64,000 nucleotides of DNA. It comes from Mobula birostris. Taxonomy: Eukaryota. Location of the stretch: assembly GCF_030028105.1 (NCBI RefSeq), contig NC_092399.1, positions 24,200,881 to 24,264,880 of the forward strand. The letters are read 5' to 3'. The notes beneath the pieces are model-generated. The model searched no databases, had not been told where the DNA came from, and saw only the letters and a program-made list of their open reading frames with translations. Both the position numbers and the translations under genes were made by a program. Numbering within the stretch: position 1 is the first letter of the stretch; the number at the start of each line of letters is the position of its first letter. Positions 5,529 to 56,056 of this stretch are shown here, in pieces.

Positions 5529-6136
5529 GAAAGACATGACCATCCGCGACAGGAGCGCCATGAAAGATGTCACAGAGACCACTCCGAAGGGAAAGAGCAC
5601 CGACATAAGAAGGCCGATGACAGAGAGCGACGCAGAGAGTGGTCGGATCGTGGGCGGGGCCACAGCAAAAAGAATGGTGGGCCTCGCACAGAGCACAGCG
5701 TTAGTGGCCGAGACAGGGAAGTTCAACAGCTCCACGAGCAGCAGGCCGAGCGCGAATTGCACAATGAAAGGCGGCGCCAGAACCGTGATCGTTTCAAAAC
5801 TCTCACAGCCGAGAATCCCCAGTCTGAACCGAACAGTAGCCAGGCTGGTCGGGGCAATACTACGCAGGTTAAAGAGGAGCCGAATTTTGAGTTATCTGGT
5901 GCTCTTGTGGAAGATACAAACACCTTTCGTGGCGTGGTGATAAAATACAACGAACCGCCAGAGTCCCGAGTCCCAAGGAAACGATGGCGTCTTTATCCAT
6001 TCAAGAACGACGAGCCTCTCCCAGTCATGTACATTCATCGCCAGAGTGCCTATCTTTTGGGTCGGCAGCGAAGAATAGTGGACATCCCGCTTGATCATCC
6101 CTCCTGCTCCAAGCAACATGCAGTGCTACAGTACAG
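5529..6136 (+). CDS. SNIP1: SNIP1 coding exon 2
   Basis: Acceptor tctag|GAA; encodes ERHDHPR...EPNFELSGALVEDTNTFRGVVIKYNEPPE...RWRLYPFK...HPSCSKQHAVLQY; donor AG|GTTTGT, phase 2. Confidence 0.97.
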
Positions 6137-6309
6137 GTTTGTGTTGTTCTCTGATTGGGAAGAAGGAGATTTAGATGTCTCCTTTTACATGCACTCAAAG
6201 GAATTAAAGCAGCTCAATTTGATTAATCTGCTGTCCTTAAATCACTTCTCGATAACAGACTTGGTGGTAAATTGATAATATAGGCAAAATTTTTGACAAT
6301 GTTGCTATA

Positions 6310-26434: not shown

Positions 26435-27310
<876 letters not shown>

Positions 27311-27352
27311 CAGTGTGCATCCAACAGAGGTAGTCACTACATCTTATTGTCT

Positions 27353-28985
27353 AGAATGACCACACAGCGGTCACTACATTTTAATGTCCACCAAATAGTC
27401 TCTGCATTTCATGCCCTCAATGGCCACTGCACCTAAGTATCCACAATGTTCACTCAACCATCACTACACCTTAATGTCCACCAAATTGTCACTGCATTTC
27501 ATGTTCACAACGTTCACCCAATGGTCACTGCATATTATGTCCACAACCTTCACTGCACCTTGATGTCCATCCAATGGTCACTGCACCTTAACGTCCATAA
27601 TGTTCACCCAGTGGCCACTGCATTTTATGTCCACAATGTTCACCCAAGCATCACTGCACCTAAATGTCCTCAACATTCACCCAAGCATCACTTCACCTTA
27701 ACGTCCACAATGTTCACCCAACAGTCACTGCATTTTATGTCCACAATGTTCACCCAAGCATCAATGCACCTAAATGTCCTCAACATTCACCCAAGCATCA
27801 CTACACCTTAATGTCCACAATGTTCACCCAACAGTCACCATACCTTAATGTCCACCAAATGGTCACTGCATTTCAAGTCTACAACGTTCACCCAATGGTC
27901 ACTGCATATTACGTCCACAACCTTCACTGCACCTTGATGTCCATCCAATGGTCACTGCACCTTAACGTCCACAATGTTCACCCAGTGGCCACTGCATTTT
28001 ATGTCCACAATGTTCACCCAAGCATCACTGCACCTAAATGTCCTCAACATTCACCCAAGCATCACTACACCTTAACGTCCACAATGTTCACCCAACAGTC
28101 ACTGCATTTTACGTCCACAATGTTCACCCAAGCATCACTGCACCTAAATGTCCTCAACATTCACCCAAGCATCACTACACCTTAATGTCCACAATGTTCA
28201 CCCAACAGTCACCATACCTTAATGTCCACCAAATGGTCACTGCATTTCAAGTCTACAACGTTCACCCAATGGTCACTGCACCTAAGTGTCCACAATGACC
28301 ACCCAACAATCACTACACCTTAATGTCCGCAACATTCACCCAACAATCACTACACCTTAATGTCCACCAAGTGGTCATTGCATTTTATGTTCACAACGTT
28401 CACCCAATGGCCACTGCATTTTATTGCCACAATGTTCACCCAATGGTCATTGCATTTTATGTCCACAATGTTCACTGCACCTTAATGTCCATCCAGTGGT
28501 CACTGCACCTTAACGTCCAGAATGTTCACCCAATAGTCACTACACCTAAATGCCCTCAACGTTCACCCAACCATCACTACACCTTAATGTCCGCAATGTT
28601 CACCCAATAGTTACCATACCTTAGTGTCCAACAAATGGTCTCCGCATTTCGTGTCCACAACGTCCACCCAATGGTCACTTCACCTTAATGCCCACATCTG
28701 CCCAATGGTCACTGCACCTTAACGTCCACAACATCCACCCAATGGTCACTGCACCTTAACGTCCACAACGTCCACCCAATGGTCACTGCACTTTAATGTC
28801 CACAACGTCCACCCAAGACTCACTGCAGCTTAATGACCACAATGTTCACCCAATGGACACTGCACCTTAACGTCCACAATGTCCACCCTATAGTCCCTGC
28901 ATGTTAATGTTCACGACGTCCACCCAGCCACACTGTACCTACAGGCTAACAGCATTCAACCAATGGCCACTGCGTCTTTGGAACA
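27353..28985. repeat. Minisatellite: ~37-bp unit with 110-bp and 374-bp higher-order periods
   Basis: Unit aaYgtccacaaYgtYcacccaatggtcactgcacctt; identical variant blocks at 27561 and 27935. Confidence 0.95.
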
Positions 28986-29709
28986 TTAATATGCATCCAA
29001 CAGGCACTGCATCTCTAGTCTAGTAACATTGGACCAATAGCCACTGGGTCTGTGGGTTAACAGCATGCAATTGCTCTTAGCCTGGTAGGGTTTGTTTTTG
29101 TAGGTTTTCTTGTACAGAATGAGATTAATTCAGACTCTATGCTTTGAATTGGATTTCAGGTGAATCAGAATGGAAAATTAATTATCAGTAATGCTTTGCA
29201 GTTCTTCACAACCATCAGCTTAAATTATTGAAACTGTGTTCTGCAGTTAACTGTATTCAGAATTTTCATTCCCATTATCGTAACTGTGAATCACCTAATT
29301 GCATATTTTCCTGCTTATTTTGTCACTCAGCCTGAATGAAAGTATTTCTCATATTTCCTTAAGACAGGAGGTTGCTTGGTTTTATCAAATCTCTGCTTGC
29401 TCTTGGATCAATTCTATTCCCCGTTTATTTCCTTGAAACCTATTCTTTCATACGTGGCTATTCACACCTTCCTGATTCTCCCACCTGTGTTTACGTTTAC
29501 GGTAGCTTAACCTAACAGCTAGCAGCACTGGGGTGTGAGGGGAAAACTGGAACACCTGATCTGAGGTGGGGAAGTTCGCAATTGGATATAGGGCAAACGT
29601 GCAGTCTCCATCCACACAATGCAGCGCTGCAGGACAGGCTGCTGGAGCTGTGGGGAAGTGTAACCAGTTGCAGTGTCGGTGTTTCAGTCAAAACTAATGA
29701 CCACTTGAA

Positions 29710-30030
29710 AGGCCTCGCTGGAGTGGATGTGAAGAGGATGCTTCCAATAGTGGGGAAAATCTAGAGCCAGAAGGCACAGCCTCAGAATAGGAGCGCATCC
29801 CATTAGAACAGAAATGAGAAGGAATTTCTCTGGCCAGATTGTTGTGAATCTGTGGAATTCATTGACGCCAAGTCATTGGGTATAATTAAATTGGAGGTTG
29901 ATGGTTTCTTGGTTTATAAGGGCATCAAAGATTATAGGAGGAAGACAGGAGAATAAAGTTGAGGGGAAATTAAATCAAGTGGCAGAGCAGACTTGATGGG
30001 CCAAATGGTTTAATTCTGTTCATATGTTTT
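29710..30030 (+). mobile_element. CR1 3' fragment
   Basis: Similar to 34220-34570. Confidence 0.7.
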
Positions 30031-30150
30031 ACGGCCATAAAGTAATCAAAAGACAAAGTTATACAATTGCAAGCAAAGGTTTGTGAACCCTTTGCAATTA
30101 CCTGGTTTTCTGCATGAATTACTCATAAAATGTGGTCTGATCTTCATCTA

Positions 30151-31754
30151 CAAACCCCATTTCCAGAAAAGTTAGGATATTTTCCAAAATGCAATAAAAA
30201 CAAAAATCAGTGATATGTTACTTCACATGAAACTTTATTTAACTGACAAAAGTACAAAGAAAAGATTTTCAATAGTTTAACTGACCAACTTAATTGTATT
30301 TTGTAAACATACACAAATTTAGAATTTGATGGCTGCAACACACTCAACAAAAGTTGGGACAGAGGCATGTTTACCATTGTGTTGCATTATCTTTCCTTTT
30401 AATAACACATTTTAATCATTTTGGAACTGAGGATACTAATTGTAGTAGATTTGCAATTGGAAATTTTGTCCATTCTTGCTTGATACAAGACTTCAGCTGC
30501 TCAACAGTCCGTGGTCTCCGTTGTCTGATTCTCCTCTTCATGATGCGCCATACATTTTCAATAGGAGATAGATCTGGACTGGCAGCAGGCCAGTCAAGCA
30601 CACACACTCTGTGTCTACAAAGCCACACTGTTGTAACCCGTGCAGAATGTGGTCTGGCATTGTCCTGGTGAAATAAGCATGGTCATCCCGGGAAGAGACG
30701 TCGCCTTGATGGCAACATATGTCTCTCTAAAATCCTAATATACGCCTCAGAGTCAATGGTACCTTCACATACATGCAACTCACCCATGCAGTGGGCACTG
30801 ATGCACCCCCATACCATCACAGATGCTGGCTTTTGCACCTTTCGCTGATAACAATCTGGATGGTCGTTTTCATCTTTGGCACGGAGAACTCAACACCCGT
30901 TTTTTCCGAAAACTACCTGAAATGTGGACTCATCTGACCACAGCACACGGTTCCACAGTCTCTCGGTCCATCTGAAATGAGCTGGGGCCCAGAGAACTCG
31001 CCGGCATTTCTGCATAGAGTTGATGTATGGCTTCGTCCTTGCATAATACAGTTCCAAGTTGCATTTCTGGATGCAGCGACGGACTGTGTTGAGTGACAAT
31101 GGTTTTCCGAAGTACTCCCGAGCCCAGGTGGCTATAATTGTCACAGTAGCATGACAGTTTCTTAGGCAGTGCCGCCTGAGGGCTCGAAGATCACGCACAT
31201 TCAACAGTGGTTTCCGACCTTGCCCTTTGCGCACTGAGATGTCTCTGAATTCTCTGAATCTTTTCATAATATTATGTACTGTAGATGTTGAAAGACCTAA
31301 ATTCTCTGCAATCTTGCGTTGAGAAATGTTCCTTTTGAACTGACTAACAATTCTCTCACGAATTTTGGCACAAAGGGGTGAGCCACAACCCATCCTTGCT
31401 TGCAAAGACTGAGCCTTTGATAGACGCTACTTTTATACCCAGTCATGATACTTCACCTGCTACCGATTAGTCTGCTTAATGTGGAGTCTTCCAAACCGGT
31501 GTTACTTGAATATTCTGTGCACTTTTCAATCTTATTTTAACTCTGTCCCAACTTTTGTTGAGTGTGTTGCAGCTATCAAATTCTAAATTTGCGTATATTT
31601 ACAAAATACAATTAAGTTGGTCAGTAAAACTATCGAAGATCTTTTCTTTGTACTTTTGTCAGTTAAATAAAGGTTCACGTGAATTAACATATCACAGATT
31701 TTTGTTTTTATTACATTTTGGAAAATATCCCAACTTTTCTGGAAATGGGGTTTG
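30151..31754 (-). mobile_element. Full-length Tc1 element B (DD34E), 214-bp TIRs, TA TSD
   Basis: TIRs 30151-30364 and 31541-31754; TA at 30149 and 31755; transposase frame 31393-30371 with 3 in-frame TGA stops. Confidence 0.95.
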
Positions 31755-32478
31755 TAAGTCACAATGATAGACCAACACTATTTGCCTAAACTAATAACAC
31801 TTCTCATCAATACTGGGTACACCATTTAAACAATCACAGACTAGGTTCAAAAATGTATGTGAACCTCTGGGGTAACGCCTTCTACAGAAACTATTTGGAG
31901 TCCAGTGTTCCAATGAATGAGATAAGATTGGGGGTATGGATTGTAACGGTGCCCTACCCTATAAAAAAGAAATACAAAGTCAAGTTACTGAGAGAGCCTA
32001 CTCTTCTCAAGAAAGATCTGGTTGTGTGCACCATGTTTCAATCAAAGCAACTTTCAGAGGACTTTAGAAGAAGAATTATAGAGATGCATGAAGCTGGAAA
32101 AGGCTACAAGAGCATTTCTAAAGACCCGAGTGTTTATCAGTCCACAGTGAGAGAAATTGTCTCCAAATGGAGGAAATTCAGTACTGTTGCTACTCGTCCT
32201 GTGAGTGGGCATCCTGCAAAGATCACACCTGGAGCTCAATGTGCAGTGCTGAAGGAGGTGAAAAAGAACCCAAGGGTAACAGCTAAAGACCTGCAGAAAT
32301 CTGTAGAACTTGCTAAAGTCTCCATTCATGTGTCCACTAGAAGAAAAACACTGAACAAGAATGGTGTTCATGGAAAGACACCACAGAGGAAACCACTGCT
32401 CTAAAAAAAAGCATTGCTGCACCTCTCAAGTTTGCAAAAGACCTCCTGGATGTTCCCTGATGCTTCTGGGACAATGTT

Positions 32479-34573
32479 TGCATGGATGAACTGCAACAAA
32501 TGTTCATCCCAGTTTGGCAAAAGAATAAATCAAGGAAGGTAGTGCACCCGTGGCTGACAAGAGAAATTAGGGATAGTATCAATTCCAAAGAAGAAGCATA
32601 CAAATTAGCCAGAGAAAGTGGCTCACCTGAGGACTGGGAGAAATTCAGAGTTCAGCAGAGGAGGACAAAGGGCTTAATTAGGAAGGGGAAAAAAGATTAT
32701 GAGAGAAAACTGGCAGGATACATAAAAACGGACTGTAAAAGCTTTTATAGATATGTAAAAAGGAAAAGACTGGTAAAGACAAATGTAGGTCCCCTGCAGA
32801 CAGAAACAGGTGAATTGATTGTGGGGAGCAAGGACATGGCAGACCAATTGAATAATTACTTTGGTTCTGTCTTCACTAAGGAGGACATAAATAATCTTCC
32901 AGAAATAGTAGGGGACAGAGGATCCAGTGAGATGGAGGAACTGAGCGAAATACATGTTAGTAGGGAAGTGGTGTTAGGTAAATTGAAGGGATTGAAGGCA
33001 GATAAATCCCCAGGGCCAGATGGTCTGCATCCCAGGGTGCTTAAGGAAGTAGCCCAAGAAATAGTGGATGCATTAGTGATAATTTTTCAAAACTCGTTAG
33101 ATTCTGGACTAGTTCCTGAGGATTGGAGGGTGGCTAATGTAACTCCACTTTTTAAAAAAGGAGGGAGAGAGAAACCGGGGAATTATAGACCGGTTAGCCT
33201 AACGTCGGTGGTGGGGAAACTGCTGGAGTCAGTTATCAAGGATGTGATAACAGCACATTTGGAAAGCGGTGAAATGATCGGACAAAGTCAGCATGGATTT
33301 GTGAAAGGAAAATCATGTTTGACGAATCTCACAGAATTTTTTGAGGATGTAACTAGTAGAGTGGATAGGGGAGAACCAGTGGATGTGGTATATTTGGATT
33401 TTCAGAAGGCTTTTGACAAGGTCCCACACAGGAGATTAGTGTGCAAACTTAAAGCACACGGTATTGGGGGTAAGATATTGGTGTGGGTGGAGAGTTGGTT
33501 AGCAGACGGGAAGCAAAGAGTGGGAATAAACAGGACCTTTTCAGAATGGCAGGCGGTGACTAGTGGGGTACCGCAAGGCTCAGTGCTGGGACCCCAGTTT
33601 ACAATATATATTAATGACTTGGATGAGGGAATTAAATGCAGCATCTCCAAGTTTGCGGATGACACGAAGCTGGGTGGCAGTGTTAGCTGTGAGGAGGATG
33701 CAGGGTGACTTGGATAGGTTGGGTGAGTGGGCAAATTCATGGCAGATGCAATTTAATGTGGATAAATGTGAAGTTATCCACTTTGGTGGCAAAAATAGGA
33801 AAACAGATTATTATCTGAATCGTGGCCGATTAGGAAAAGGGGAGGTGCAACGAGACCTGGGTGTCATTATAAACCAGTCATTGAAAGTGGGCATGCAGGT
33901 ACAGCAGGCGGTGAAAAAGGCGAATGGTATGCTGGCATTTATAGCGAGAGGATTCGAGTACAGGAGCAGGGAGGTACTACTGCAGTTGTACAAGGCCTTG
34001 GTGGGACCACACCTGGAGAATTGTGTGCAGTTTTGGTCCCCTAATCTGAGGAAAGACATCCTTGCCATAGAGGGAGTACAGAGAAGGTTCACCAGATTGA
34101 TTCCTGGGATGGTAGGACTTTCATACGAAGAAAGACTGGATGAACTGGGCTTGTACTCGTTGGAATTTAGAAGATTGAGGGGGGATCTGATTGAAACGTA
34201 TAAGATCCTAAAGGGGTTGGACAGGCTAGATGCAGGAAGATTGTTCCCGATGTTGGGGAAGTCCAGAACGAGGGGTCACAGTTTGAGGATAGAGGGGAAG
34301 CCTTTTAGGACCGAGATTAGGAAAAACTTCTTCACACAGAGAGTGGTGAATCTGTGGAATTCTCTGCCACAGGAAACAGTTGAGGCCAGTTCATTGGCTA
34401 TATTTAAGAGGGAGTTAGATATGGCCCTTGTGGCTACGGGGGTCAGGGCGTATGGAGGGAAGGCTGGGGTGGAGTTCTGAGTTGGATGATCAGCCATGAT
34501 CATAATAAATGGCGGTGCAGGCTCGAAGGGCCGAATGGCCTACACCTGCACCTATATTCTATGCTTCTATGTT
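32479..34573 (+). mobile_element. 5'-truncated young CR1 LINE (RT domain)
   Basis: ORFs 32482-33708 and 33563-34480 with [33 protein letters not shown]; one frameshift near 33700; ttctatg tail. Confidence 0.97.
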
Positions 34574-34699
34574 CTGTGGACAGGTGAGACAAAAATTGAA
34601 CTTATTGGCAGAAATGCTCACGTCTGGAGGGAAAAGGGCCCTGCACACCAACACCAAAACCTCTTCCCAACTGTGAAGCGTGGAGGAAGGAGTACCATC

Positions 34700-37046
34700 C
34701 TGCATTGAAGACTACTAGGGCCCCACTTATGACATCAGACACAGTATAAACACACACAGTACTCAGGTAAGTAACACCTGTAGCAAAGCTGAGACTGTTT
34801 GCTGCTGTGGTTCAAAATGCTTTCCAAGAAAAGAAAAGTTGACAACGAAGGTCGGATATTCAACAATAATTGGAAAGATCGTTTTTTCTTCTGTGAAGTC
34901 AACGGCAAACTTGAGTGTCTGATATGTTCGCAAACAAGTGGCTGTGGCAAAAGAGTACAATATCAAATGACACTATGAGACGTCACACGGAGAAAAATAT
35001 GACAAGTACGCAGGACGATTCAGAACGGCAATCAGTGTTCACCAAAAGTTGACAGACTCATGATGGAGCTGTCAAGTCCAGCTATATTATTGCCAACAAA
35101 ATAGCTGCTGCGTCGAAGCCATACTCAGAGGGGGAGTTCATCAAAGCATGCATGCTGACTGCGGCTGAGCTGGTGTGCCCTGAGAAGAGACAGGCTTTTG
35201 GTAATGTCAGCTTGTCAAGAAATACTGTAGCAGAGAGAGTTGGGGACCTTGCAGGAGATTTGAACGGTCAACTAAAAGATAAAGTGAAGTCATTTATTGC
35301 CTTCTCTATTGCAATTGATGAGAGCACTGACGTGATTGATGTAACTCAATTGGGAATATTTATTCGTGGTGTTGATGTATCTTTGACAGTAACCGAGGAG
35401 TTTGTGGAGATGGTGCCCATGACAAACACCACAATGGTGAATGACGTTTTCTCCAGCCTCGTTGAGGCCTAGGGTTGACTGGAGTCACGCTGTCAGCGTG
35501 GCAACAGATGGCGCACCGTCCATGGTCGGGAAAAAGGCAGGAGTTGTTGTGAAACTCAGAGAGAAAGTTCAGACAGGGAATCCAGAGCAGGAGTTTTCGT
35601 TGTATTGTACAGCAAGAGGCGTTATGTAGCAGGAGCCTGAAAATGGACAATGTCCTGGATGGAGTAATCAAAACGTTTAATTTTATTAGAGCTAAGGGAC
35701 TCAATCATTGGCAATTTGACACTCTTTTGTCTGAAAGTAATATTGGACACGGCCTACCCTACCACACTGAAGTCTGCTGGTTGAGCAGTGGGGTTGTGAT
35801 CAAACGTTTTTTTCAATTACGTGCGGAAATTGGACTTCATGAACGAGAAAGGGAAGCCAGTGGCAGAGTTGGATGACCCAGACTGGCCTCATGATCTTGC
35901 ATTTTTGGTGGATATAACAGAGCACTTAAATGTGCTTAATGTTAACATGCAAGGCCGCAATAAACTTGTTACAGAATACTACAACGGCACTCGTGCCTTT
36001 CAAATTAAATTAGGCCTGTGGGAGATGCAACTATCCCGGAGTAACCCAGCTTATTTCCCCTCTTTACAGTCTGTGCGTGTCGCTCATGGGAATGTCGCTG
36101 TAGGCTATGGTTACCTTATAAGGTAACTGGAGAATGCACCCCAACAGGTGTATGTAACAAGCAAGTGACAACATGAACAGGTACAAGGACAAAATATCAC
36201 TGCTGAAAAGTGAGTTTCAGAATCGTTTCCAAGTCTTCACTCAGCTCGAGAAGGAATTCTCACTATTTTGCTTGCCATTTGCCATCAACGCAGCATCAGA
36301 TGTGCCAGATGAACTCCAAATTGAACTAATTGAAATTCAATGTAACTCAGCTTTGAAATATAAAGTTGAGACTGTGGGTCTGGATTCATTCTATCAATAC
36401 CTGGGACAGGTGTCTGGAAGCAGCAAGTGAAAAATGAGTTGACACTATTCGATGCACTGCGACATGTAAGCAAAATGCATTATGAAATATTGAGTGTCAT
36501 AATATTGTGATTCATTCATTTTCTGACTATTCTATTATTGTAAATGTGATCACTTCAATAAAAAATTAGGGGCTAACTGTTCATTGTCTGGGTTTGATTG
36601 CTGGAAGCAGGCTAATAAAATATAGGTGCAGTTGTGTAGCCTACACTTACAATTTGTTTTGTTAGGTCTACATTTGTGTCTGCTAATGTTGGATTTCAAA
36701 TGGTTTATTAATGGAAAGGGTGTGTCTCCCAAAACAATCTTAGCCGAAATAGCATCGCTTTTTCTCTCTCTCATCACAACTTTCTTGTAGCCTATGACTG
36801 TAAGTTAATACCAATCATAAAAATAATGCTTGCTAGGCAATTTTCATAAGAAACGAAATTCGTAAAGTGGAACACTTTGTAGTTATAGCAGAGACTGAGA
36901 CACATGAGAGCAGGTTGAAAAAATGAAGGCAACAAAAGCTGTTGGAGCACGCTCACGTGTGTTCACGTGTGCACAACCGATCCGGCAGCATGAAGTCGCA
37001 TTTTGCCCAATCCGGCCGGTGACCTAAAATGAGGTTGACACCCCTA
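34700..37046 (+). mobile_element. hAT transposon (Charlie/SPIN, GTF2IRD2-like transposase), decayed; left TIR absent
   Basis: ATG at 34817 MLSKKRKVDNEGRIF...CLIC; [36 protein letters not shown]; right end gaggttgacaccccta followed by tcctagat. Confidence 0.9.
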
Positions 37047-37050
37047 TCCT

Positions 37051-37135
37051 AGATGCTACCTGGCCTGCTGACTTTCTCCAGCATTTTGTGTGTGTTGCTC
37101 AGATTTCTAGCATCTGCAGATTTTCTCTTGTTTGT
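37051..37135 (+). mobile_element. Penelope pLTR fragment
   Basis: Matches 38843-38925. Confidence 0.7.
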
Positions 37136-37399
37136 GAATGGTCAGTACTCAAGTCTGTTTTATTTGTTGCCCCCTGCTAACACTTACAGCAGCAGTTTTT
37201 CCTTATTGCAGTTTCCTCAGCATTGCCATAACAGCCTGACATAAAAGACAGAGGAACAAGGATAAGTTGTTCAGTCACTGTAGAATAAATGGCCTTTCAC
37301 TGAACTCCTGAGCAACCGGAATTCTGTTTCCTTTGATGTCCATGCTTACAAAATTTTTATAACTACTTTTGGCAGAATCAATTAAAAGCAGTCTGGTAA

Positions 37400-38030
37400 G
37401 TGATTACAGATCTCTGATATGCAGAAGGATCCAGGTGTCCTCGTACACAGTCTCAGAAGGCAAGTGTGCAGCTATTACAGATAAGCGGGAAAGGTAATGA
37501 ATATTATTGTTTACCTGTAAGGGAATTGAATACAAAAGTCAGAAAGTCATGTCTCAGTTAGGGTGTTAGTGAGACCATGTTTAGAATACTATATACAGCA
37601 TTGATTTCTGATGTAGGGAATGGCAGAAATACATTGTAAGTAGTTCAGGAGTTTACCAGGTTGATAAGTGAATCGGGCGGGTTGACTTGTGAGAAAATGT
37701 TGAATAAGGTGGTTTTGTAAAGAAAAGTCAGAGAGAACTGATTAACATAAGTTCCTGAGATGTTTTGAAAGGGTGAGGAGGATGTTTCTTCTCAAGCGAG
37801 AAGCTAAGACCAGAGGTGATATTAAAAAAAAATGAAGATAGAGATGGTGAATGTTTTTCCGATAGGGTCTTGAACCTCTAGCTTGTTTCAGGCAGAGGAT
37901 AGATTCTTTCCAAGGATGTAATAGTTTGTGCTGGACAAATGGGAATGCAGAGTGGAGCTTGCAGACAGCCATGATATTAGTGCAGAGGAAACCTAGAGAA
38001 TGTCCTGATCCTAATTCATACGTTTGCATC
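37400..38030 (+). mobile_element. Old degenerate CR1 3' fragment
   Basis: Residual similarity to CR1 ORF2 C-terminus. Confidence 0.6.
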
Positions 38031-38262
38031 TCTTGAAATTTCTTTGTTGTAGTATCCATTGCCTTTTGGCAAAGACAGTTTTGCGTTTTGGGAAACCCAT
38101 GTATACAATTGGAATTCCTGATTTCACCCTTAAATGGTTAATCTCCAGTTTGAAGCATGTTCAAGATTGCACCAGTTAAAATATTTTTTCTCTATATCCA
38201 ATTAAATTCCATGTTTTTAAGCAATTGGAACAGGTTAGCCCTGTTTATTTGGGAATATCCAT

Positions 38263-38925
38263 TTGGGAATGACCGCTTTGCTGAACACCTACGCTCTGTC
38301 CGCCAGAGAAAACAGGATCTCCCAGTGGCCACACATTTTAATTCCACATCCCATTCCCATTCTGACATGTCTATCCACGGCCTCCTCTACTGTAAAGATG
38401 AAGCCACACTCAGGTTGGAGGAACAACACCTTATATTCCGTCTGGGTAGCCTCCAACCTGCTGGCATGAACATCGACTTCTCTAACTTCCGCTAATGCCC
38501 CACCTCCCCCTCGTACCCCATCTGTTACTTATTTTTATACACACATTCTTTTTCTCACTCTCATTTTTCTCCCTCTGTCCCTCTGAATATACCCCTTGCC
38601 CATCCTTTGGGTCCCCCCCAACCCTTGTCTTTCTTCCCGGACCTCCTGTCCCGTGCTCGTCTCGTATCCCTTTTGCCAATCACCTGTCCAGCTCTTGGCT
38701 CCATCCCTCCCCCTCCTGTCTTCTCCTATCATTTTGGATCTCCCCCCTCCCCATCCAACTTTCAAACCCCTTACTCACTCTTCCTTCAGTTAGTCCTGAC
38801 GAAAGGTCTCGGCCTGAAACATCGACTGCACCTCTTCCTAGAGATGCTGCCTGGCCTGCTGCATTCACCAGCAACTTTTATGTGTGTTGCTTGAATTTCC
38901 AGCATCTGCAGAATTCCTGTTGTTT
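38263..38925 (+). mobile_element. Penelope-like element 3' part (GIY-YIG endonuclease C-terminus and pLTR)
   Basis: DRFAEHLRSVR...PVATHFNS...RLEEQHLIFRLGSLQPAGMNIDF*; pyrimidine-rich tract; pLTR. Confidence 0.9.
38791..38828 (+). ncRNA. Minimal type-I hammerhead ribozyme motif in the Penelope pLTR
   Basis: UAGUC-CUGACGA-A-AGG(UCUCGG)CCU-GAAA-C-AUC-GACUG. Confidence 0.7.
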
Positions 38926-39354
38926 CTAGTCTGTCCTTATTTCTTCTGGTACAGCAATGGTGTTTTGGTAAACCTGTGTTGATCAGCTGCATGACTAGTA
39001 TAAAATTCCTGAATTGTGTAAAGTGTTAAATTATATTCTCCATATCCAAGTGCATACTTTTGATTACTAGAATCTAGATCTTAATTAGAAGTTTTATAGC
39101 TAAGATGTATGCCTACAATGAGACTAATTTCCATTCAGAATTTTCAATAATTGATCTTTATATTCCTTTTCTGTACCTTTGTAAAGTCATGCATTAGGTA
39201 TTTGTATAAGGTTTAATCAGAAGATGTAGAGAATATGAAGCATTTAATTTTCTATCCCATTTCTGAAATTTACCCGTGCTCACTGCATTACATTGCAAAA
39301 CAAGAGAATTTTTGTTCTCCCACAGTTTTAACAGTTAATTTATTCTTTTTATAG

Positions 39355-39576
<222 letters not shown>

Positions 39577-39697
39577 TAAAAAAATTTAATCTGTTCCAGA
39601 TGTATTATAGCTACTGTGAATTTCCCAAATTAAAAAAATGTAAAGTTTATATTGTTTGGGCCTTAAAAGAATCTTGTATCATGTCCATAGACCATAT

Positions 39698-40219
39698 ACA
39701 TTCAGTGTCCACGTTATTAGATATCTCCTGTACCTAATAAAGTGGCCCCTGAATGTATGTTTGTAGTCTTCTGGGGCTGTACCCCATGTACTTTGAGATT
39801 CAACATTGTGCGATCAGAGATACTCTACTATGTACCACTGTTGTAATGCCTGGTTATTTCAGTTACTATCAGCTTGAACCAGTCTGACCATTCTCCTTTA
39901 ACTTCTCTCAGTAATAAGGCACTTTTGCACATAAATCTGGATTTTTTTTTTGTTGTTTTCGCACTGTTTCTGCAAATTCTAGAGACTGTTGTGTGGGAAA
40001 AAAAAAACCCAAGAGGTCAGCAGTTTCTGAGATATTGAAAATACCCTGTCTTGTAGCAGTGGTCAAAGTCACTTGGATTACATTTCTTCCCCATTCTGAT
40101 GTTTGGTCTGAACAACAACAACTGAACCTTTTGACCATGTCTGCATTAAGTTTCTGCCACATAATTGGCTGATTAGATATTTACATTAATGAGCAGATGT
40201 ACCTTATAAAGTGAGTGTA
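39698..40219 (-). mobile_element. Tc1-derived non-autonomous element
   Basis: Reverse complement of 51370-52510; cagtggccactttattaggtac-type termini. Confidence 0.7.
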
Positions 40220-40529
40220 TGTTCCATTTTTAAGATTTGCTTATTCTGAGTGAAGACTGTAATGAGTGTACAAAGAAACTCCAAATGAATGTCTTGAATA
40301 AGACTCTACATAGTAACAAACTGGTATGAAATAGAGCCATGAGGTATCTTGGGTTCAACCCATACAGGGTAGTACTTGGATAAGTAATCTTGATCTCAGG
40401 ACTATTGGACCACAGTTTAGGGAATTGTACAGCTGGACTTGTGTTCTCAATCACCCTGCTGTTGAATAGAACTAGGCTCTACTGCTATTCCCGTAATGAA
40501 AAGTTTACTAATATTTGAATGCTTGAGTT

Positions 40530-41020
40530 GATAGAACATGGAAGATTATGGCACAGTACCAGGCCTTCGGTGTTGTGTCAACCTTTTAACATGCTCTGAG
40601 AGAAATTTAACCCTCTGCTCCTACATAAACCTTGCATTTTTCTATTATCCATGTGCTGATTTCAGTGTTTCTTAAATGCTGTTTATGTACCTGCCTCTAC
40701 AACCACCCCTGACCACTCACTCACCACTCTGTGTAAAGAACTTACCTCTGACATCCCTCCTATGTGTTCCTCCAGTCACCTTAAAATTATGCCCCTTGTA
40801 TAAGCTATTTCTACCCTGAGAGAAAGTCCTTGGCTATCTACTCTATCTGTGCACCTTATATTGTACACCTCAATCAAATCACCTCTCATCCTCCTTCACT
40901 CCAGCTCACTCTATCTTCATAAGACATGTCCTCTAGTTCAGGCAGCATCCTGGTAAATCTCTGCACCCCCTCTAAAGCTTACACATCCTTCCTATAATGA
41001 GGCAACAAGATCAGAACACA
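40530..41020 (-). mobile_element. CR1 3' fragment
   Basis: Similar to 53000-53500. Confidence 0.75.
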
Positions 41021-41596
41021 GTTGTGGGAAGAATCACCATTGAAAGGTATAGGTGGATTCTAGGGCCTGAGGAATCATACCCAGATAAAATTCAGTGTGT
41101 TCAGCTGAGGAGTGCAGATTGATACAAGATGAAATAGATTCCTTTTGAGGCTTGAAGTTCTCAGAACTATAACTTAATCCAGTATGAAATTGTATTGAAG
41201 TTATGTAGCAAGTTATTAACTAATGGCAGCACCTTGCGGGAAAGCCAGTTTTAACCACACCTGCAGCATTCATTTGTGGATCAACAATCCCAATTGTTCA
41301 AATAAGTGTCAGGATACATCTCGTAGTTCAAAATTACAAAGGTCAAAAGTAAAAATGTCTACTAAAGGCAAATACATCTTTTTCTCCTTTATTCATCTCT
41401 GAGTTACTTCATCCTGTGCAGCATGTAAAGTGGATCGCTTATTTTGGGAGCATAATCAATAGTTGTGTAAACCAGCTATTTAGGTGAAGGAGGGTAACTT
41501 GTTTTCATTTTATTTTTCCCTTTCCCTGTATGCACTCTTTTTTAAAATCTTATAATCAGGGTACCTGCGTAAATAATGCGTAAACAATGTACTTAA

Positions 41597-41899
<303 letters not shown>

Positions 41900-42421
41900 G
41901 TAAGTCTAAAACCATGCTTAATCTATTAGCAGAAATTGACCTGTAGCAGGCAATTTTTCTCAGATGTTTTGAGTAGTTGTTGGAAATGAGGCAGGGAAGG
42001 TTGGTTCAGTAGAAGAGTGATTATATTGATGTCATCAAGCTTTGAACAAGTCTTCTAAATTCATTGCAATTCTGACACCTGCTTATTTTATTAATTTCTG
42101 CTAACCTGGAGATGTTTATGGTTTTATTTGCTTTTTAATCTATCATGGCGGGGAAACGAGGACCAATGGTGTCAACACTATGATATAACTTTTCATGGTT
42201 CACCATGTATACTGTGAACGTTTTGTCTGCAGTATTTGATTGTACCATTAGAAACTGAAGAGCTCTTGCAACAATTTCTAATACTTAAAATTTGATGACA
42301 TTTTCTAAGGTTGATCATTGTATTCTTTGTGCTGATGTGCTTTGAAGAATGTAGTTATCAAAGGTAGAACTAACATATGTTTTTTTAAAATCTCTTACAT
42401 TTTCTGTGTGAAATATGTTAG

Positions 42422-42617
42422 GTGAACCAGGCAGTGGGACAGAAAGTGACAATTCACCAGACTTCCAGAACCAGGAGAATGAACCCAACCAGGAGGACAC
42501 TGAGGAATTGGATGGGTCACACCTGCAGGGCGTGAAACCTCAGAAAGCAGCCTCCTCTACGTCATCCAGCAGTCACCATGGGAGTCACAAGAAAAGGAAA
42601 AATAAAAACCGTCACAG
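42422..42617 (+). CDS. MEAF6: MEAF6 exon 5
   Basis: ttag|GT; [21 protein letters not shown]...[10 protein letters not shown]; AG|GTAATT. Confidence 0.97.
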
Positions 42618-46586: not shown

Positions 46587-48209
46587 CAGTGGCATGCAAA
46601 AGTTTGGGCACCCCTGGTCAAAATTTCTGTTACTGTGAATAGCTAAGTGAGTAAAAGATGACCTGATTTCCAAAAGGCATAAGGTTAAAGATGACACATT
46701 TCTTTAATGTTTTAAGGAATATTACTTTTTTATTTCCATCTTTTACAGTTTCAAAATAACAAAAAAGGAAAAGGGCACGAAGCTATGGCTTGTTGACAGT
46801 CATCGTTAGGAAAGGTCAGGTTATGCAAATTTCAAAACTTTATAAGTACTCTGACTCCTCAAACCTTGTCCCAACAATCAGCAGCCATGGGCTCCTCTAA
46901 GCAGCTGCCTAGCACTCTGAAAATTAGAATAATTGATGCCCACAAAGCAGGAGAAAGCTATAAGAAGATAGCAAAGCGTTTTCAGGTAGCCGTTTCCTCA
47001 GTTTGTAATGTAATTAAGAAATGGCAGTTAACAGGAATGGTGGGGGTCAGATTGAGGTCTGGAGGTCCAAGAAAACTTTCCAAGAGAGCTGCTCATAGGA
47101 TTGCTAAAAAGGCAAATCAAAACCCCCATTTGACTGCAAAAGACCTTCAGGAAAATTTAGCAGACTCTGGAGTGGTGGTGTACTGTTCTACTGTGCAGCG
47201 ACACCTGCACAAATATGACCTTCATGGAAGAGTCATCAAAAGAAAACCTTTCCTGCGTCCTCACCACAAAATTCAGCGTCAGAAGTTTGCAAAGGAACAT
47301 CTAAACAAGCCTGATGCATTTTGGAAACAAGTCCTGTGGACTGATGAAGTTAAAATAGAACATTTTGGCCGCAATGAGCAAAGGTATGTTTGGAGAAAAA
47401 AGGGAGCAGAATTTCATGAAAAGAACACCTCTCCAACTGTTAAGCACGGGGGTGGATCGATCATGCTTTGGGCTTGTGTTGCAGCCAGTGGCACGGGAAA
47501 CATTTCACTGGTAGAGGGAAGAATGAATTCAAATACCAGCATATTCTGGAAGCAAACATCACACCATCTGTAAAAAAGCTGAAGATGAAAAGAGGATGGC
47601 TTCTACAACAGGATAATAATCCTAAACACATCTCAAAATCCACAATGGACTACCTCAAGAGGCGCAAGCTGAAGGTTTTGCCATGGCCCTCACAGTCCCC
47701 CAACCTAAACATCATCGAGAATCTGTGGATAGACCTCAAAAGAGCAGTGCATGCAAGACAGCCCAAGAATCTCACAGAACTAGAAATCTTTTGCAAGGAA
47801 GAATGGGTGAAAATCCCCCAAACAAGAATTGAAAGACTCTTAGCTGGCTACAGAAAGTGTTTACAAACTGTGATACTTGCCAAAAGGGGTGTTACTAAGT
47901 ACTGACCATGCAGGGTCAGTATGGTCAGTATTTAGTCCTAACAAGCTAATTAAGGTCTGAGACCTTGGCAAAAGTTACCTGAGAGCTCAAATCTCTTGGG
48001 GTGCCCAAACATTTGCATGGTGCTCCTTTCCTTTTTTTCATTCTAAAATTGTACAAAACAAAAATAATACTCCAATCTTGCTTAAAATGTTGAAAAGAAT
48101 GTTTCATCTTTAACTATGACTTTTGGAGATCAGTTCATCTTTTACTCACTTAACTATTCACAGTAATAGAAATTTTGACCAGGGGCGCCCAAACCTTTGC
48201 ATGCCACTG
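46587..48209 (+). mobile_element. Tc1 element C (DD34E) in MEAF6 intron 7
   Basis: Termini cagtggcatgcaaaagtttggg / cccaaacctttgcatgccactg; transposase 46887-47905 (VLWTDE, QQDN, IENLW) with one frameshift near 47530. Confidence 0.95.
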
Positions 48210-49664: not shown

Positions 49665-51880
49665 TGTCAAAGGATGACACGAGCTTCAGTAGTGGGTGTG
49701 GTTTGCTTGAATAATTGGATATGTACAATAGTTCCCTGGCCACTTGAGTAAGATGACATGTCATTCTACCTCTTAAATGCCTAATCTTAGGTGATTCTTT
49801 ATTACATACTGATGAGCATTGAAGTGCAGAAAATGTATTATCTGGGGATAGATTTTGGGGTCTTCTGGGGTCTTGTTATTCAGCTCAATGTAAAAGATAA
49901 CATTGCATTGTTTAAAAAATTAAGCATGCAATTTCTCCCAAAGTAGTTAACACTATTTATTCTAGAATAGTTCAACCTCTTAGACTGAATAATTTTTCTC
50001 ATTGCTGGTTTTGAGTTTTGCCATAAGTAGGTTGTCCATCATGTTTGGCTCTGTGGTGGTAACTGCATTCAGAGATTTAAGATAGATATAAAAGAAAAAT
50101 TATATTGAAAGCATTGTTTTGGATTTGACAGTATCATCACTGTAGAATTAAGAATAGGGTTAGTGGCTTTTCTCTGTTAAAGGCTTCGTGTGAAATGAAC
50201 TTTCAAAATTGCAACTACGTTACCCTACATTACACACTTAACTGAGTTTTTTGATTGTACACTAAAATATTTAAAATAGCATGGAAGTTGGAATATCTTA
50301 AACAAAGTAACCTGCAACAGCTTCAACCTCAAATGAAACATCTTCCATGGCAGTGGAAAACATATGTGAATATTCAATTTTAGTAAACCATAGTTACAGG
50401 AGTTATGTGCTTGACGAAGTCCATTTTGAAGACCTCCACACTATCTCTGATGTGGTAGCCCTGGACGCCAGCCTGTTAGGATTAATGTTCCCATCACTCC
50501 TGATCAGTAAGAAACAGAAAAGGCCATATCCTTTTTTTTTTAAAAAAAACAAGACCCTTAGAGCCAACAATTTGCCTGAGAATTTCTAAAACTTGGGTGG
50601 TAAAGAGCAGAAGTCACAAATCCTCATTGTCCACATCTTAGAAGGGAACAATAAATCATTGCTGGAGATGGAACTTCTGACTGTTGATTAAAGAGGCCCC
50701 TTTGCTGTTAAATAGAAGGGAAGTCATTGCCAGGGTCTTCCTCAACTATCTTCCAGTAGCCAAGGAGCAGCTCCTTGAATCACAGTGCAAATTCCATCCA
50801 TGTAAAGAAATGGCAGATCTGCACTTCCCTGAGTTACAGATCCAGGAGAAGCGCAGGAAGCAGTAGTAATCATTGTTTATATCCCTTTTAAGCCTCATTA
50901 ATGTCTTTGATTCCAATTGGAAAATATGTTGGAACACTACCTTCTAATTAGATACATTACCCACAGAAATTTGTACCTTTTCATTTTGATGGTATGCAAA
51001 ATGTAATCCTAATCAACATGCCTGTGACAGCAATCAAAATGAAGACCAGCGTCAAACAAAGCAGCATTATCCACCTCCCCCCAAGTCTTACGTCAATGCT
51101 GCATCTTTCCTTTAAACATCTTGCAGGAAAAAAGCTGATCTTCAGATCTAATTGAAAAAACTCAGTTTATGGCACCACATTCCAGAGCCAAGATTACTCC
51201 AACCACAGTGTCAAGCTACAGTATTATGTGTATGTGCATTCTGTATCTGCAAATCAAAAGGTCAATCTACCAAACTGGCCCTGATCTACAATATTGCTTT
51301 CCAAACAAAAAAAAAAGTTTATGAACACGAGCAAATCTGCAGAAAAGTTCATGATCTGGATTACTTCTACACTCAGTGGCCACTTTATTCCATTCACTTG
51401 TACACCTCGTTAATGGAAATATCTAATCAGCCAATTGTGGCAGCAATTCAATTCATAAAAGCATGCAGAATATGATCTGGGATTCCCCATATGGGGTCCA
51501 CGGACCCTTTGCTTAATGGTATTGGCCCATGGCATAAAGAAGTTTAGTTGTTCAAACCTTGCATCAGAGTGGGGAAGAAATGTGATTTTGACCCATGGAA
51601 TGAACGTTGGTGCCAGATAGGGTGGTTTGAATATCTCAGAAACTGCTGATGTGGGACTTTAAGACACAGCGGTCTCTATAGAGTTTACAGAGAATGATGC
51701 GAAAAACAAACTATTCAGTGAGCAGCGGTTCTGTGGGTGAAAACACGTTGTTAATGGGAGAGGTCAGAGGGGAAAGGCCAGACCGGTTCAAGCTGACAGG
51801 AAGGTGACAACAGCTCAAATAACCATAGTAGTGTGCAGAAGAACATCTCTGAACACACCACACGTTGAAGTGGATGGGAT

Positions 51881-52445
51881 GTGTTGTGTTCGTCCATCGT
51901 CGACGTTGATAAGGACCTCAACACCATTTGATGGTGTCGAGACTAGCACGTGACTTGGATTTAAGTGAGGGAGAGTTGTGCGGCGTCAGCCTCACTCTCT
52001 GTTCCCAATTTCCACCTGGATCCAGTGGCAAGACAGAGTCGAGACGGCTGGAGATGGGACTAGGTGCAATGGATGACCAGGACATCTTCTGTGTCTTGTC
52101 CTGCTCTACACGTTCCACGACGCTTGCAGAGACCGCCTTCTTGACCGTTGGACCTTCCATTGATCTCGTCCGCTCAATCCGCCAGAGTCTGTTGTTGCAT
52201 ACTGGGATAGACAACTCCCTATCTCACCGAGGGTTTGAGACTCATCGGCTACCCTCACCTGGTTTACCCGGCTTGTCGAAGCCGTTGCCTGGGGTGTGGC
52301 CGCTGTTGCATGTATACAGCTACGGGGAGCCACAGGTGAGAGCTGAGTGCTAGGTGGGGACCAAAGGTGGACTAACCGCCCTGAAAAGGACGTGACATGT
52401 TCCCCCACCAGAGGTGCTACCCCTCCCTGACACGCCATACACCCC
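51881..52445 (-). mobile_element. 565-bp non-autonomous retroelement (RTE-like family 2) with 12-bp TSD
   Basis: TSD agtggatgggat at 51869-51880 and 52446-52457; 3' tail ...acacaacac; no RT. Confidence 0.85.
52254..52445 (-). ncRNA. HDV-like ribozyme fold at the element 5' end; this copy lacks the catalytic C
   Basis: P1 GGGGUGU/ACACCCC, P2 CUCACCUG/CAGGUGAG, P3 GGC/GCC, L3 starting UCCCCGU, (A)GGCAAC junction, P4 CGGCUU/AAGCCG. Confidence 0.7.
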
Positions 52446-52739
52446 AGTGGATGGGATACAGCTGCAGAAAGCCACAAACATACAGCCAGCGGCCACTTTA
52501 TTAGGTACAGCACAGTACTCCAGCACAGCCTTTGAGGAAAAGGATGTTTGACAATCAAGACCTAGGTCTAAGCTAGTGGTCGGCAGGCCAACAGTAATCC
52601 ATCTCCTGTATGCTTTGTATTACCTGTTACAACAATGGAAAATCCGGTTTAATGAATTTAAAGGTTAACTTTACTTATCACATGTACATCGAAAAAAATA
52701 AAATCTGTCATTTTGCTTCAACGGCCAACACAATCCAAG

Positions 52740-52998: not shown

Positions 52999-55900
52999 AA
53001 CATAGAACATAGAATAGTACAGCACAGTACAGGCCCTTTGGCCCATAATGTTGTGCTGACCCTCAAACCCTGCCTCCCATATAACCCCCCACCTTAAATT
53101 CCTCCATATACCTGTCTATTAGTCTCTTAAACCTCACTAGTATATCTGCCTCCAGCACTGACTCAGGCAGTGCATTCCACGTACCAAACACTCTGAGTAA
53201 AAAACCTTCCTCTAATATCCCCCCTTAAACTTCCCACCCCTTACCTTAAAGCCATGTCCTCTTATATTGAGCAGTGGTGCCCTGGGGAAGAGGCACTGGC
53301 TATCTACCCTATCTATTCTCCTTATTATCTTGTACACCTCTATCATGTCTCCTCTCATCCTCCTTCTCTCCAAAGAGTAAAGCCCTAGCTCACTTAATCT
53401 CTGATCATAATCCATACTCTCTAAACCAGGCAGCATCCTGGTAAATCTCCTCTGTACCCTTTCCAATGCTTCCACATCCTTCCTATCCAACCAGAAATGG
53501 ACACAGTACTCCAAGTGTGGCCTAACCAGAGTTTTATAGAGCTGCATCATTACATCGCGACCCTTAAACTCTGTCCCTCAACTTATGAAAGCTAACACCC
53601 CATAAGCTTTCTTAACCACCCTATCTACCTGGGAGGCAACTTTCAGGGATCTGTGGCCATGTACCCCCAGATCCCTCTGCTCCTCCACACTACCAAGTAT
53701 CCTGCCATTTACTTTGTACTCTGCCTTGGAGTTTGTCCTTCCAAAGTGTATCACCTCACACTTCTCCGGGTTGAACTCCATCTGCCACTTCTCAGCCCAC
53801 TTCTGCATCCTATCAATGTCTCTCTGCAATCTTCGACAATCCTCTACACTATCTACAACACCACCAACCTTTCTGTCGTCTGCAAACTTGCCAGCCCAGC
53901 CTTCTACACCCACACCCAGGTCGTTAATAAAAACCACGAAAAGTAGAGGTCCCAGAACAGATCCTTATGACACCACCAGTTACAATCCTCCAATCTGAAT
54001 GTACTCCCTCCACCACGACCGTCTGCCTCTGCAGGCAAGCCAATTCTGAATCCACCTGGCCAAACTTCCCTGGATCCCTTGCCTTCTGACTTTCTGAATA
54101 AGCCTACCATGTGGAACCCTGTCAAATGCCTTATTAAAATCCATATAGATCACATCCACTGCACTACCCTCATCTATATGCCTGGTCACCTCCTCAAAGA
54201 ACTCTATCAGGCTTGTTAGACACGATCTGCCCTTCACAAAGCCATGCTGACTGTCCCTGATCAGACCATGATTCTCTAAATGCCCATAGATCCTATTTCT
54301 AAGAATCTTTTCCAACAGCTTTCCCACCACAGACGTAAGGCTCACTGGTGTATAATTATCTGGACTAACCCTACTACCATTTTTGAACAAGGGGACAACA
54401 TTCGCCTCCCTCCAATCCTCCGGTACCATTCCTGTGGACAACGAGGACATAAAGATCCTAGCCAGAGGCTCAGCAATCTCTTCTCTCGCCTTGTGGAGCA
54501 GCCTGGGGAATATTCTGTCAGGCCCCGGGGACTTATCTGTCCTAATGTATTTTAACAACTCCAACACCTCCTCTCCCTTAATATCAACATGCTCCAGAAC
54601 ATCAGCCTCACACATATTGTCCTCACCATCATCAAGTTCCCTCTCATTGGTGAATACCAAAGAGAAGTATTCATTGAGGACCTCGCTCACTTCCACAGCC
54701 TCCAGGCACATCTTCTCACCTTTATCTCTAATCAGTCCTACCTTCACTCCTGTCTTCCTTTTTTTCTTCACATAATTGAAGAATGCCTTGGGGTTTTCCT
54801 TTACCCTACTCGCCAAGGCCTTCTCATGCCCCCTTCTTGTTCTCCTCAGCCCCTTCTTAAGCTCCTTTCTTGCTTCCCTATATTCCTCAATAGACCCATC
54901 TGATCCTCGCTTCCTAAACCTCATGTATGCTGCCTTCTTCCACCTGACTAGATTTTCCACCTCACTTGTCACCCATGGTTCCTTCACCCTACCATTCTTT
55001 ATTTTCCTCACCGGGACAAATTTATCCCTAACATCCTGCAAGAGATCTCTAAACATCGACCACATGTCCATAGTACATTTCCCTACAAAAACATCTTCCC
55101 AATTCACACCCACAAGTTCTAGCCTTATAGCCTCATAATTTGCCTTTCCCCAATTAAAAATTTTCCTGTCCTCTCTGATTCTATCCTTTTCCATGATAAT
55201 GCTAAAGGCCAGGGAGCAGTGGTCACTGTCCCCCAGCTGCTCACCCACTGAGAGATCTGTGACCTGACCCGGTTCATTACCTAGTACTAGATCTAGTATG
55301 GCATTCCCCCTAGTTGGCCTGTCCACATACTGTGACAGGAATCCGTCCTGGACACACTTAACAAACTCTGCCCCATCTAAACCCTTGGAACTAATCAGGT
55401 GCCAGTCAATATTAGGGAAGTTAAGGTCACCAATGATAACAACTCTGTTATTCTTGCACCTTTCCAAAATCTGTCTCCCAATCTGCTCCTCTGTATCTCT
55501 GCTGCTACCAAGAGGCCTATAGAATACCCCCAATAGAGTACCTGCTTCCTTCCTGTTCCTGACTTCCACCCATACTGACTCAGAAGAGGATCCTGCTACA
55601 TTACCCACCCTTTCTGTAGCTGTAATAGTATCCTTGAACAGTAATGCCACCCCTCCTCCCCTTTTTCCGCCCTCTCTATCCCTTTTAAGGCACTGAAATC
55701 CAGGAATATTGAGAACCCATTCCTGCCCTGGTGCCAGACAAGTCTCTATAATGGCCACTACATCATAATTCCATGTATGTATCCAAGCTCTCAGTTCATC
55801 ACCCTTGCTCCTGATGCTTCTTGCATTGTGGTACACACACTTCAGCCCTTCTACCTTACTGTCTTTACGCCATTTATTCTGCTTCAAAGCCTCTCTATAT

Positions 55901-56056
55901 GTTCGATCTAGCTTTACTCCATGCACTTCTTTCACTGCTCTATCGCTCCGGGTCCCATCCCCCTCGCAAATTAGTTTAGACCCTCCCGAACCGTGCTAGC
56001 AAACCTACCTGCAAGGATATTGCTCCCTCTCGAGTTCTGGTGCAACCCATCCAATC
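52999..56056 (-). mobile_element. CR1 LINE: end of ORF1 plus whole ORF2 region, frameshifted in the RT 3' half
   Basis: 651-aa ORF 53980-55935 (NARSI, GDLNFP, DFNKAFDRV); continues in 53578-53937 (KFADD) and 53212-53550; (ttctatg)n tail. Confidence 0.97.

Follow-up and report, generated by a model that had tools for sequence, protein, structure and literature searches.

Non-autonomous derivatives that keep both ends of a LINE are described from RTE, Ingi, Vingi and R2 elements, and a 5' ribozyme has been proposed as the reason why such derivatives retain the LINE 5' end (PMC5786205). In R2 SIDEs and R2/R1 hybrids a ribozyme is joined to a LINE 3' end (PMC3414825), the short elements of trypanosomatids bear active HDV-like ribozymes (PMC4035085), and a review places HDV-like ribozymes in RTE LINEs and some SINEs (PMC6765202). 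The R2 ribozymes described in PMC3774820 vary in J1/2 and P4, one of them having an odd L3 spacing, while L3 is given as 7-8 nt in HDV and CPEB3 (bioRxiv 2022.09.22.508989). A change of the catalytic C is reported to inactivate the ribozyme (PMC10879173).

The element described here lies in a 64,000-nt stretch of Mobula birostris DNA (the window, which is the whole stretch analysed) and belongs to a family that we call family A. It is, in the reading that we prefer and consider probable, a mutated copy of a young non-autonomous element that carries a 194-nt HDV-type ribozyme of RTE origin with a hairpin in L3; intact copies likely cut themselves at G1 from read-through transcripts of the host and are likely copied in trans by an RTE-type LINE. 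Like the bipartite RTEs RTE-N2_Lch, RTESINE1/2, WALLSI3 and Bov-A, as these are described in PMC5786205, the element is short and non-coding, has no RNA-gene head and has an RTE-type 5' end. Unlike them, it is without a parent LINE of the same 3' end in the loci searched, its ribozyme fold is backed by pair swaps, and it carries a hairpin in L3. An HDV-like ribozyme at base 1 is shared with the R2 SIDEs and R2/R1 hybrids of Drosophila, in which the SIDEs add a LINE 3' end and TPRT in trans (PMC3414825); however, SIDEs are described there as rare and confined to rDNA, whereas family A is dispersed, numbers thousands of copies and is of RTE-type origin. The NARTc, RIME and SIDER elements of trypanosomatids are likewise numerous non-autonomous copies led by an HDV-like ribozyme, some of them decayed, but they belong to the L1Tc/ingi clade and have a 77-nt ribozyme that doubles as a promoter (PMC4035085), whereas the ribozyme here is 194 nt long with a J1/2 of 96 nt. 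With the ribozymes of RTE and R2 LINEs such as drz-Agam-2-1 (PMC4908430, PMC3774820) it shares the order P1, P1.1, P2, P3, P4, a cut at the first base of P1 (here predicted), a long structured J1/2 (P1.2) and an extended P2. The ribozymes in those two accounts vary in J1/2 and P4/L4, while the one described here differs in a 19-nt hairpin in L3.

The element in the window and its family

An earlier, sequence-only reading had placed a 565-nt element on the minus strand at 51881-52445, bounded by a 12-bp TSD, and had set the helices of an HDV-type ribozyme within it. All of these coordinates were confirmed on the window (Table 1). The L3 bases U20, C21, C22, C24 and G25 were assigned by what we take to be the HDV numbering.

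Table 1. Coordinates of the element and of the parts of its ribozyme in the window
Feature	Positions	Strand	Remarks
TSD, 3' side of the element	51869..51880	.	the 12-mer is the same on the two sides
Family A non-autonomous non-LTR retroelement, full-length copy	51881..52445	-	94.3% identity to the family majority
Short A/C-rich microsatellite tail	51881..51890	-	other copies carry (ACA)n or (ACCA)n
Two short 3' inverted repeats	51892..51941	-	seen in folds
Non-coding body	51942..52251	-	holds the letters ASWNV (52123-52109), which are not conserved
P2 3' strand, end of the ribozyme	52252..52261	-	two P2 pairs swap C-G/G-C across families
J4/2	52262..52268	-	catalytic cytosine position 52267, G in the window copy
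P4 hairpin	52269..52284	-	6 bp; second pair G-C in A, C-G in B, X and Y
P1.1 3' strand and J1.1/4	52285..52290	-	G38 is A here (52290)
P3' and P1' strands, contiguous	52291..52300	-	P3' 52300-52298, P1' 52297-52291
Hairpin inserted at the 3' side of L3	52302..52320	-	majority 6 bp with 7-nt loop; 5 bp left here
L3 core with U20, C21, C22, C24 and G25	52321..52328	-	fits the fixed L3 positions of a descriptor given in PMC6326823
P3 5' strand	52329..52331	-	middle pair G-C in A, B and X, C-G in Y
P2 5' strand	52332..52342	-	10 bp with 52261-52252 and a possible top U-A pair
J1/2, 96-nt structured domain	52343..52438	-	closed by P1.2 (52435-52426 with 52354-52345)
Second copy of the P1 5' heptamer	52430..52436	-	mutated at 52434; predicted to be held in the J1/2 stem P1.2
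P1 5' strand	52439..52445	-	G1 is the first base of the element and the predicted cleavage site; pair 6 G-C here, A-U in LINE-X
TSD, 5' side of the element	52446..52457	.	its final base on the minus strand, T, stands at -1 of the predicted cut

What we take to be the exons of a MEAF6-like gene lie on the plus strand at 26882-42600, with what is presumably a SNIP1-like exon at 5529-6272 (+), and we take the intervals 32461-34477 (+), 53983-55995 (-), 46797-47902 (+) and 35053-35469 (+) to hold remnants of CR1-type LINEs, pieces of Tc1-like transposases and one hAT-like fragment, flanking repeats that would fit a cartilaginous fish. The element lies some 9 kb beyond the last MEAF6-like exon that was located, on the opposite strand, so its ribozyme would be absent from that pre-mRNA.

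Conserved coding capacity is absent, reading frames not being common to family A and its sister family B (described below), and a search with the sense frame of the body, a weak test, gave no protein match among 681 candidates. A stop-free antisense frame of 186 codons runs across the whole element in family A, a length reached by 22 of 2,000 shuffles; it is absent in B and was rejected as coding. The letters ASWNV had been read as the remnant of an endonuclease start. They are present, but family B has other residues there, and the real RTE-type endonucleases of this genome begin 530-550 nt after G1 in another context, so this claim was given up. The statement that there are no Pol III boxes held good: a search for a tRNA, 5S or 7SL head found no tRNA and no Rfam RNA, and one intact copy contained no B-box-like match on its sense strand. 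Identity between A and B drops along the body from 0.85 to about 0.6. At the 3' end, the terminal inverted repeat (51916-51892) is predicted from its fold to serve as a hairpin for recognition by the RT.

The element served as query against the whole genome (4.0 Gb), which yielded 5,299 candidates, and among the best 40, which were scored, the 39 copies other than the element itself matched it nearly end to end at 93-94% identity. A 24-nt pattern covering P4, J4/2 and P2' had 2,617 matches in the genome and none in a reversed control; the pattern is exact but tolerant of CpG decay, and this number is a lower bound on the copy number of family A. The sample studied came from 90 loci and comprised 86 distinct copies after 4 duplicates were dropped, and 59 copies were selected by their 3' sequence alone so as to leave their 5' ends unbiased. 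These 59 begin at base 1 in 26 cases and within bases 1-10 in 41, while 18 are truncated at scattered positions from 70 to 402, and sequence shared upstream of G1 was seen in none of the 59. The predicted pile-up of 5' ends at G1 was thus found, with 41 of 59 starts within 10 nt and none extending upstream. Among 68 near-full-length copies, 48 are flanked by TSDs of 7-15 bp; of the starts so defined, 18 fall exactly before base 1 and 32 at positions 0-3, where the edges are blurred by overlap with the G run. The base at -1, counted in 44 full-length copies, is T in 32, A in 7, C in 4 and G in 1.

All the marks of TPRT are therefore present (variable TSDs, 5' truncation, and a fixed 3' end with a simple-repeat tail), and the TSDs and truncations together with the clustered starts are what TPRT of an RNA whose 5' end is fixed leaves behind. 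With at least 2,617 copies, TSDs in 48/68 and 5' truncation in 18/59, the description of the element as a high-copy non-autonomous product of TPRT is borne out. Copies diverge from the family majority by 1.6% at non-CpG sites, equally in ribozyme and body, and by 11.2% at CpG sites, as expected of young copies decaying neutrally. C75, G25, P1, P1.1, P3 and J4/2 are intact in 22 of 44 full-length copies. Two family-A copies are inserted in LINE remnants (L243:3269-3576 and L115:607-1115), the former being 83% identical to the majority, with deletions, and it may mark a further subfamily. A 22-nt motif had 0 exact matches in metagenome contigs, and sequencing reads covered all 30 bins of the element in three of four runs, one of the three being RNA only by guess, while the run of raw reads gave none.

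The ribozyme fold, its relatives and the L3 hairpin

Family A has the nested double pseudoknot of P1, P1.1, P2, P3 and P4 in order. Its J4/2 opens with the catalytic C, after which comes A78, and the family majority has U20, C24 and G25 in L3 and two C-G pairs in P1.1. G1, at the element's 5' end, stands opposite a pyrimidine, as G1-C in families A and B and in the LINE families X and Y described below, and as G1-U in LINE-Z. J4/2 reads C-U-A-A and departs from the C-R-R-A of one design descriptor (PMC6326823), a point against our preferred reading. Position 52267 is C in 73 of the 76 copies that cover it and in 2,558 of the 2,617 genome-wide matches, the other 59, among them the window copy with its G, having another base; position 52290, a CpG site, is G in 64 of 76. 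Both checks had been proposed from the sequence alone, along with the view that the window copy is probably dead, and this copy does fail at C75 and at P1.1. A descriptor of the HDV topology that allows an insert in L3 matched the family-A majority and not the window copy, and in dinucleotide shuffles it matched 0 of 2,000 when tied to base 1 and, when free to fall at any position, 1 of 150, a generous control because the descriptor was written with this sequence known. Against the HDV-type models of Rfam, the window copy had no match, an intact family-A copy matched RF02682 at E 3.9, and a LINE-X copy had no match. Because LINE-X, whose L3 is plain, is also missed, the lack of a useful match is not attributable to the insert alone, with one copy of each compared.

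The 5' heptamer of P1 is doubled, at family positions 1-7 and 10-16, and both copies are able to pair with P1'. In the MFE folds of families A and B, positions 11-20 pair with 92-101, and J1/2 folds at about -45 kcal/mol in both. P1.2 is predicted to sequester the second heptamer, so that cleavage would fall at base 1 and not at base 10. P1.2 is kept in LINE-X and LINE-Y, with three pairs swapped relative to A and B. The second heptamer was rejected as an alternative start, as just 2 of the 48 starts fixed by TSDs are at 10-11 and microhomology explains these equally well. In another large HDV-like ribozyme, a stable P1.2 with an extended P2 is described as strongly accelerating (PMC4908430).

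A single young family cannot show covariation, and relatives were therefore sought. Sister family B gave 221 matches to a 23-nt motif in the same genome (reversed control 0) and 2,321 candidates in a 3'-end search. It is about 536 nt long, 81% identical to A and older, with copies about 80-90% identical to their own majority; its members (loci L141-L170 and L275-L304) have the same ribozyme and an (ACC)n tail, and it retains the start, the core and the L3 hairpin of A. Identity between the two is 0.98 over bases 1-40, 0.60 over 41-80, 0.88-0.95 over 81-200 and 0.40-0.63 over the last 160 nt. Searches with the RTE-type endonuclease domain led to three families of LINE, for which LINE-X, -Y and -Z are our labels and not clade names, and their ribozymes lie about 530-550 nt upstream of the endonuclease. 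LINE-X (21 copies with a whole 5' UTR) and LINE-Y have a homologous ribozyme, each starting at its own G1, with the same layout of P2, P3, P4 and J4/2 and a plain L3 of 7 nt. Bases 1-194 of the element are 61-63% identical to LINE-X, with a best E of 3e-7. Among the best 120 of 202 matches, the homologues of the LINE-X endonuclease are single ORFs of about 1,000-1,060 aa with EN and RT. A single ORF with endonuclease and RT is the build of RTE elements, and LINE-X appears on this ground to be of RTE type. In B, X and Y an A replaces the conserved C24 of L3.

LINE-Z (L305-L334, e.g. L212:4449-4589 (-); best 40 of 226 candidates scored) is identical to the element in its first 15 nt. It has a compact HDV-like fold with G1-U, a P1.1 of one C-G pair plus U-U as in CPEB3 and almost no P4, and here J4/2 and P2 are assigned with less confidence than in family A. 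An endonuclease follows in 22 of 30 copies, in most of them about 550 nt on. Two more RTE-type families (L267-L273; L217 and L223) have structured 5' UTRs. One of these has a doubled hexamer at its start and a short hairpin just before the complement of the hexamer, and may represent another ribozyme with an inserted hairpin.

To score pairing on the structure drawn from family A, 22 copies were aligned (7 A, 4 B, 7 X and 4 Y; 896 cells). The cells pair in 86.2% of cases, against 80.1% in shuffles and 35-49% with slid partners; these counts include inherited changes many times, and four A-U cells at the first pair of P1 are artefacts of decay or trimming at the ends. At the level of families, two-sided swaps occur in eight pairs, a single pair each in P1, P3 and P4, two pairs in P2 and three in P1.2, and there are none in P1.1 in these 22 copies of four families. 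The 13 pairs with a two-sided change are not above the shuffles (10.7 on average, with 61 of 500 reaching 13). The covariation expected of P1-P4 was thus seen as swaps between families, but not as an excess of changed pairs. On these comparisons we judge the HDV-type fold heading the element to be real and well supported.

With its hairpin, the L3 of family A is 28 nt long instead of 7-8 nt. The 21 extra alignment columns of A and B fall between the L3 core and P3', where X and Y have nothing, so the hairpin is an insertion in L3, and its absence from the homologous LINE-X and LINE-Y, with their L3 of 7 nt, agrees with the earlier description of it as an atypical variant. It is identical in A and B, and because no two-sided change occurs within these families, support for the hairpin comes from the unrelated one in LINE-Z. 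There, the L3 core ends in G-U-A and is followed by an unrelated 4-bp hairpin and one G, in the same frame as in A, and the four pairs hold in 30, 30, 28 and 30 of 30 copies. As the final L3 bases of HDV are free of constraint, the hairpin is predicted to turn away from the active site. Elements of this type are known; the L3 hairpin, occurring in two unrelated sequences, appears to be the new part, neither such an insertion nor this family having been found in the literature searched, in which coverage of RTE ribozymes is incomplete.

Mobilisation and alternative explanations

The proposed link to RTE-type LINEs stood for the ribozyme, which is of RTE-type origin, and was not borne out for a LINE sharing both ends, none being present in 154 LINE loci. 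The 5' end is homologous to the 5' UTR of an RTE-type LINE, and for the 3' end no homologous 3' UTR was found in these loci. The body had no significant match to a LINE there, the sequence just behind the ribozyme aligning to LINE-X at an E of at least 0.2, and the tails of LINE-X, -Y, -Z and other sampled RTE-type families differ from that of the element. When a profile built from the final 220 nt of both families was compared with the 154 loci, the only match was an inserted copy of the element; these loci are an incomplete sample of LINE families, with at least nine of RTE type and others of CR1 and Tx1 type. No autonomous LINE sharing both ends stood upstream of 60 loci chosen by their 3' end, 3'-end DNA searches for A and B gave no LINE sharing that end, and two endonuclease protein searches (40 extra stretches) gave no LINE with the 3' end of the element, each of the partner searches being scored for its best 40 or 150 candidates. 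DUF6451-type RTEs were rejected as the partner for having no common 3' end. The best matches to the Pfam endonuclease, which were of CR1 and Tx1 types together with one cellular-looking gene, were also rejected, as they do not share the 3' end. To judge by these comparisons, the 5' module appears to be of RTE type, and the mobilising LINE may be unsampled, lost or of another clade.

In our preferred reading, a copy would be co-transcribed from a host promoter, no Pol III head having been found. The ribozyme, the fold of which is supported by pair swaps, would then form with P1.2 hiding the second heptamer, and would cut at base 1, while the L3 hairpin would point off the core in place of the last one or two L3 bases. 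A LINE protein would bind the 3' hairpin and the microsatellite tail, and the RNA would be inserted by TPRT. Inserted copies would decay neutrally, and the window copy, in which the catalytic C and one pair of P1.1 have been lost, would be inactive.

A hybrid origin would differ from this account only in the binding and insertion by the LINE protein: the ribozyme would derive from an RTE-type LINE, and the 3' part and the enzyme from another LINE, either an unsampled or lost RTE or a member of another clade. The lack of a 3' match in the 154 LINE loci speaks for such an origin, as does the mosaic 5' end, in which the first 15 nt and the L3 hairpin are as in LINE-Z and P2, P4 and J4/2 as in LINE-X and LINE-Y, and there is a precedent in the R2/R1 hybrid SIDEs (PMC3414825). 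However, the element has in common with X, Y and Z a terminal hairpin with a microsatellite tail of 3-6 nt and TSDs of 7-15 bp, and the bipartite non-coding derivatives reported in PMC5786205 come only from RTE, Ingi, Vingi and R2, and we think a hybrid rather unlikely.

It was also considered against self-cleavage that a pile-up at base 1 is also to be expected from an internal promoter. The inherited fold might no longer cut, having been disabled by the L3 hairpin, with an internal Pol II promoter setting the 5' end and the structure retained because it binds protein or stabilises the RNA. The 5' ends of some LINEs are described as both promoter and ribozyme (Pr77), L3 belongs to the active site (PMC4908430), and self-cleavage in the preferred reading is a prediction; in addition, A24 in B, X and Y counts against cleavage, because an inactive R2 ribozyme has two differences, one of them being a change from C to A at an L3 position that is conserved (PMC3774820). 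Yet A and B, although 19% apart overall, both retain the catalytic C, G25, P1.1 and the exact register of P1 at base 1, and an autonomous LINE with a different L3 hairpin also begins exactly at G1 of P1, which makes a fold that has lost its activity distinctly improbable. The hairpin itself would disappear from L3 if P3 closed a plain 8-nt L3 through the triplet 52320-52318, leaving 20 extra nt between P3' and P1'. In family A this triplet can pair with the P3 5' strand (one G-U and two Watson-Crick pairs), but the P3 partner in LINE-X and LINE-Y is the triplet adjoining P1', which swaps together with P3 in Y, the equivalent in LINE-Z yields a G-A mismatch, and P3' and P1' are contiguous in the HDV-type ribozymes described in PMC3774820. 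We give this register hardly any credence.

Implications

It is conceivable, although we hold it as a tentative view, that the 3' side of L3 is a third expandable site of the HDV fold, and that in this genome an active, undescribed subtype heads both an RTE-type LINE that is autonomous and non-coding parasites that arose in two waves, seeding thousands of predicted self-cleaving RNAs. A natural hairpin in L3 would widen the known tolerance of the fold, and the descriptors used to search for it, because L3 is part of the active site of HDV and is 7-8 nt long in the ribozymes described. The genome itself offers matched natural pairs with and without the insert, in A and B versus X and Y, and in Z. 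Sense-oriented intact copies in host genes are predicted to cut the transcripts of those genes. The element lends support to the idea that the 5' end is retained in non-autonomous RTE derivatives because the ribozyme makes it, and a 5' end made in this way would let a SINE-like family of a vertebrate spread without Pol III.
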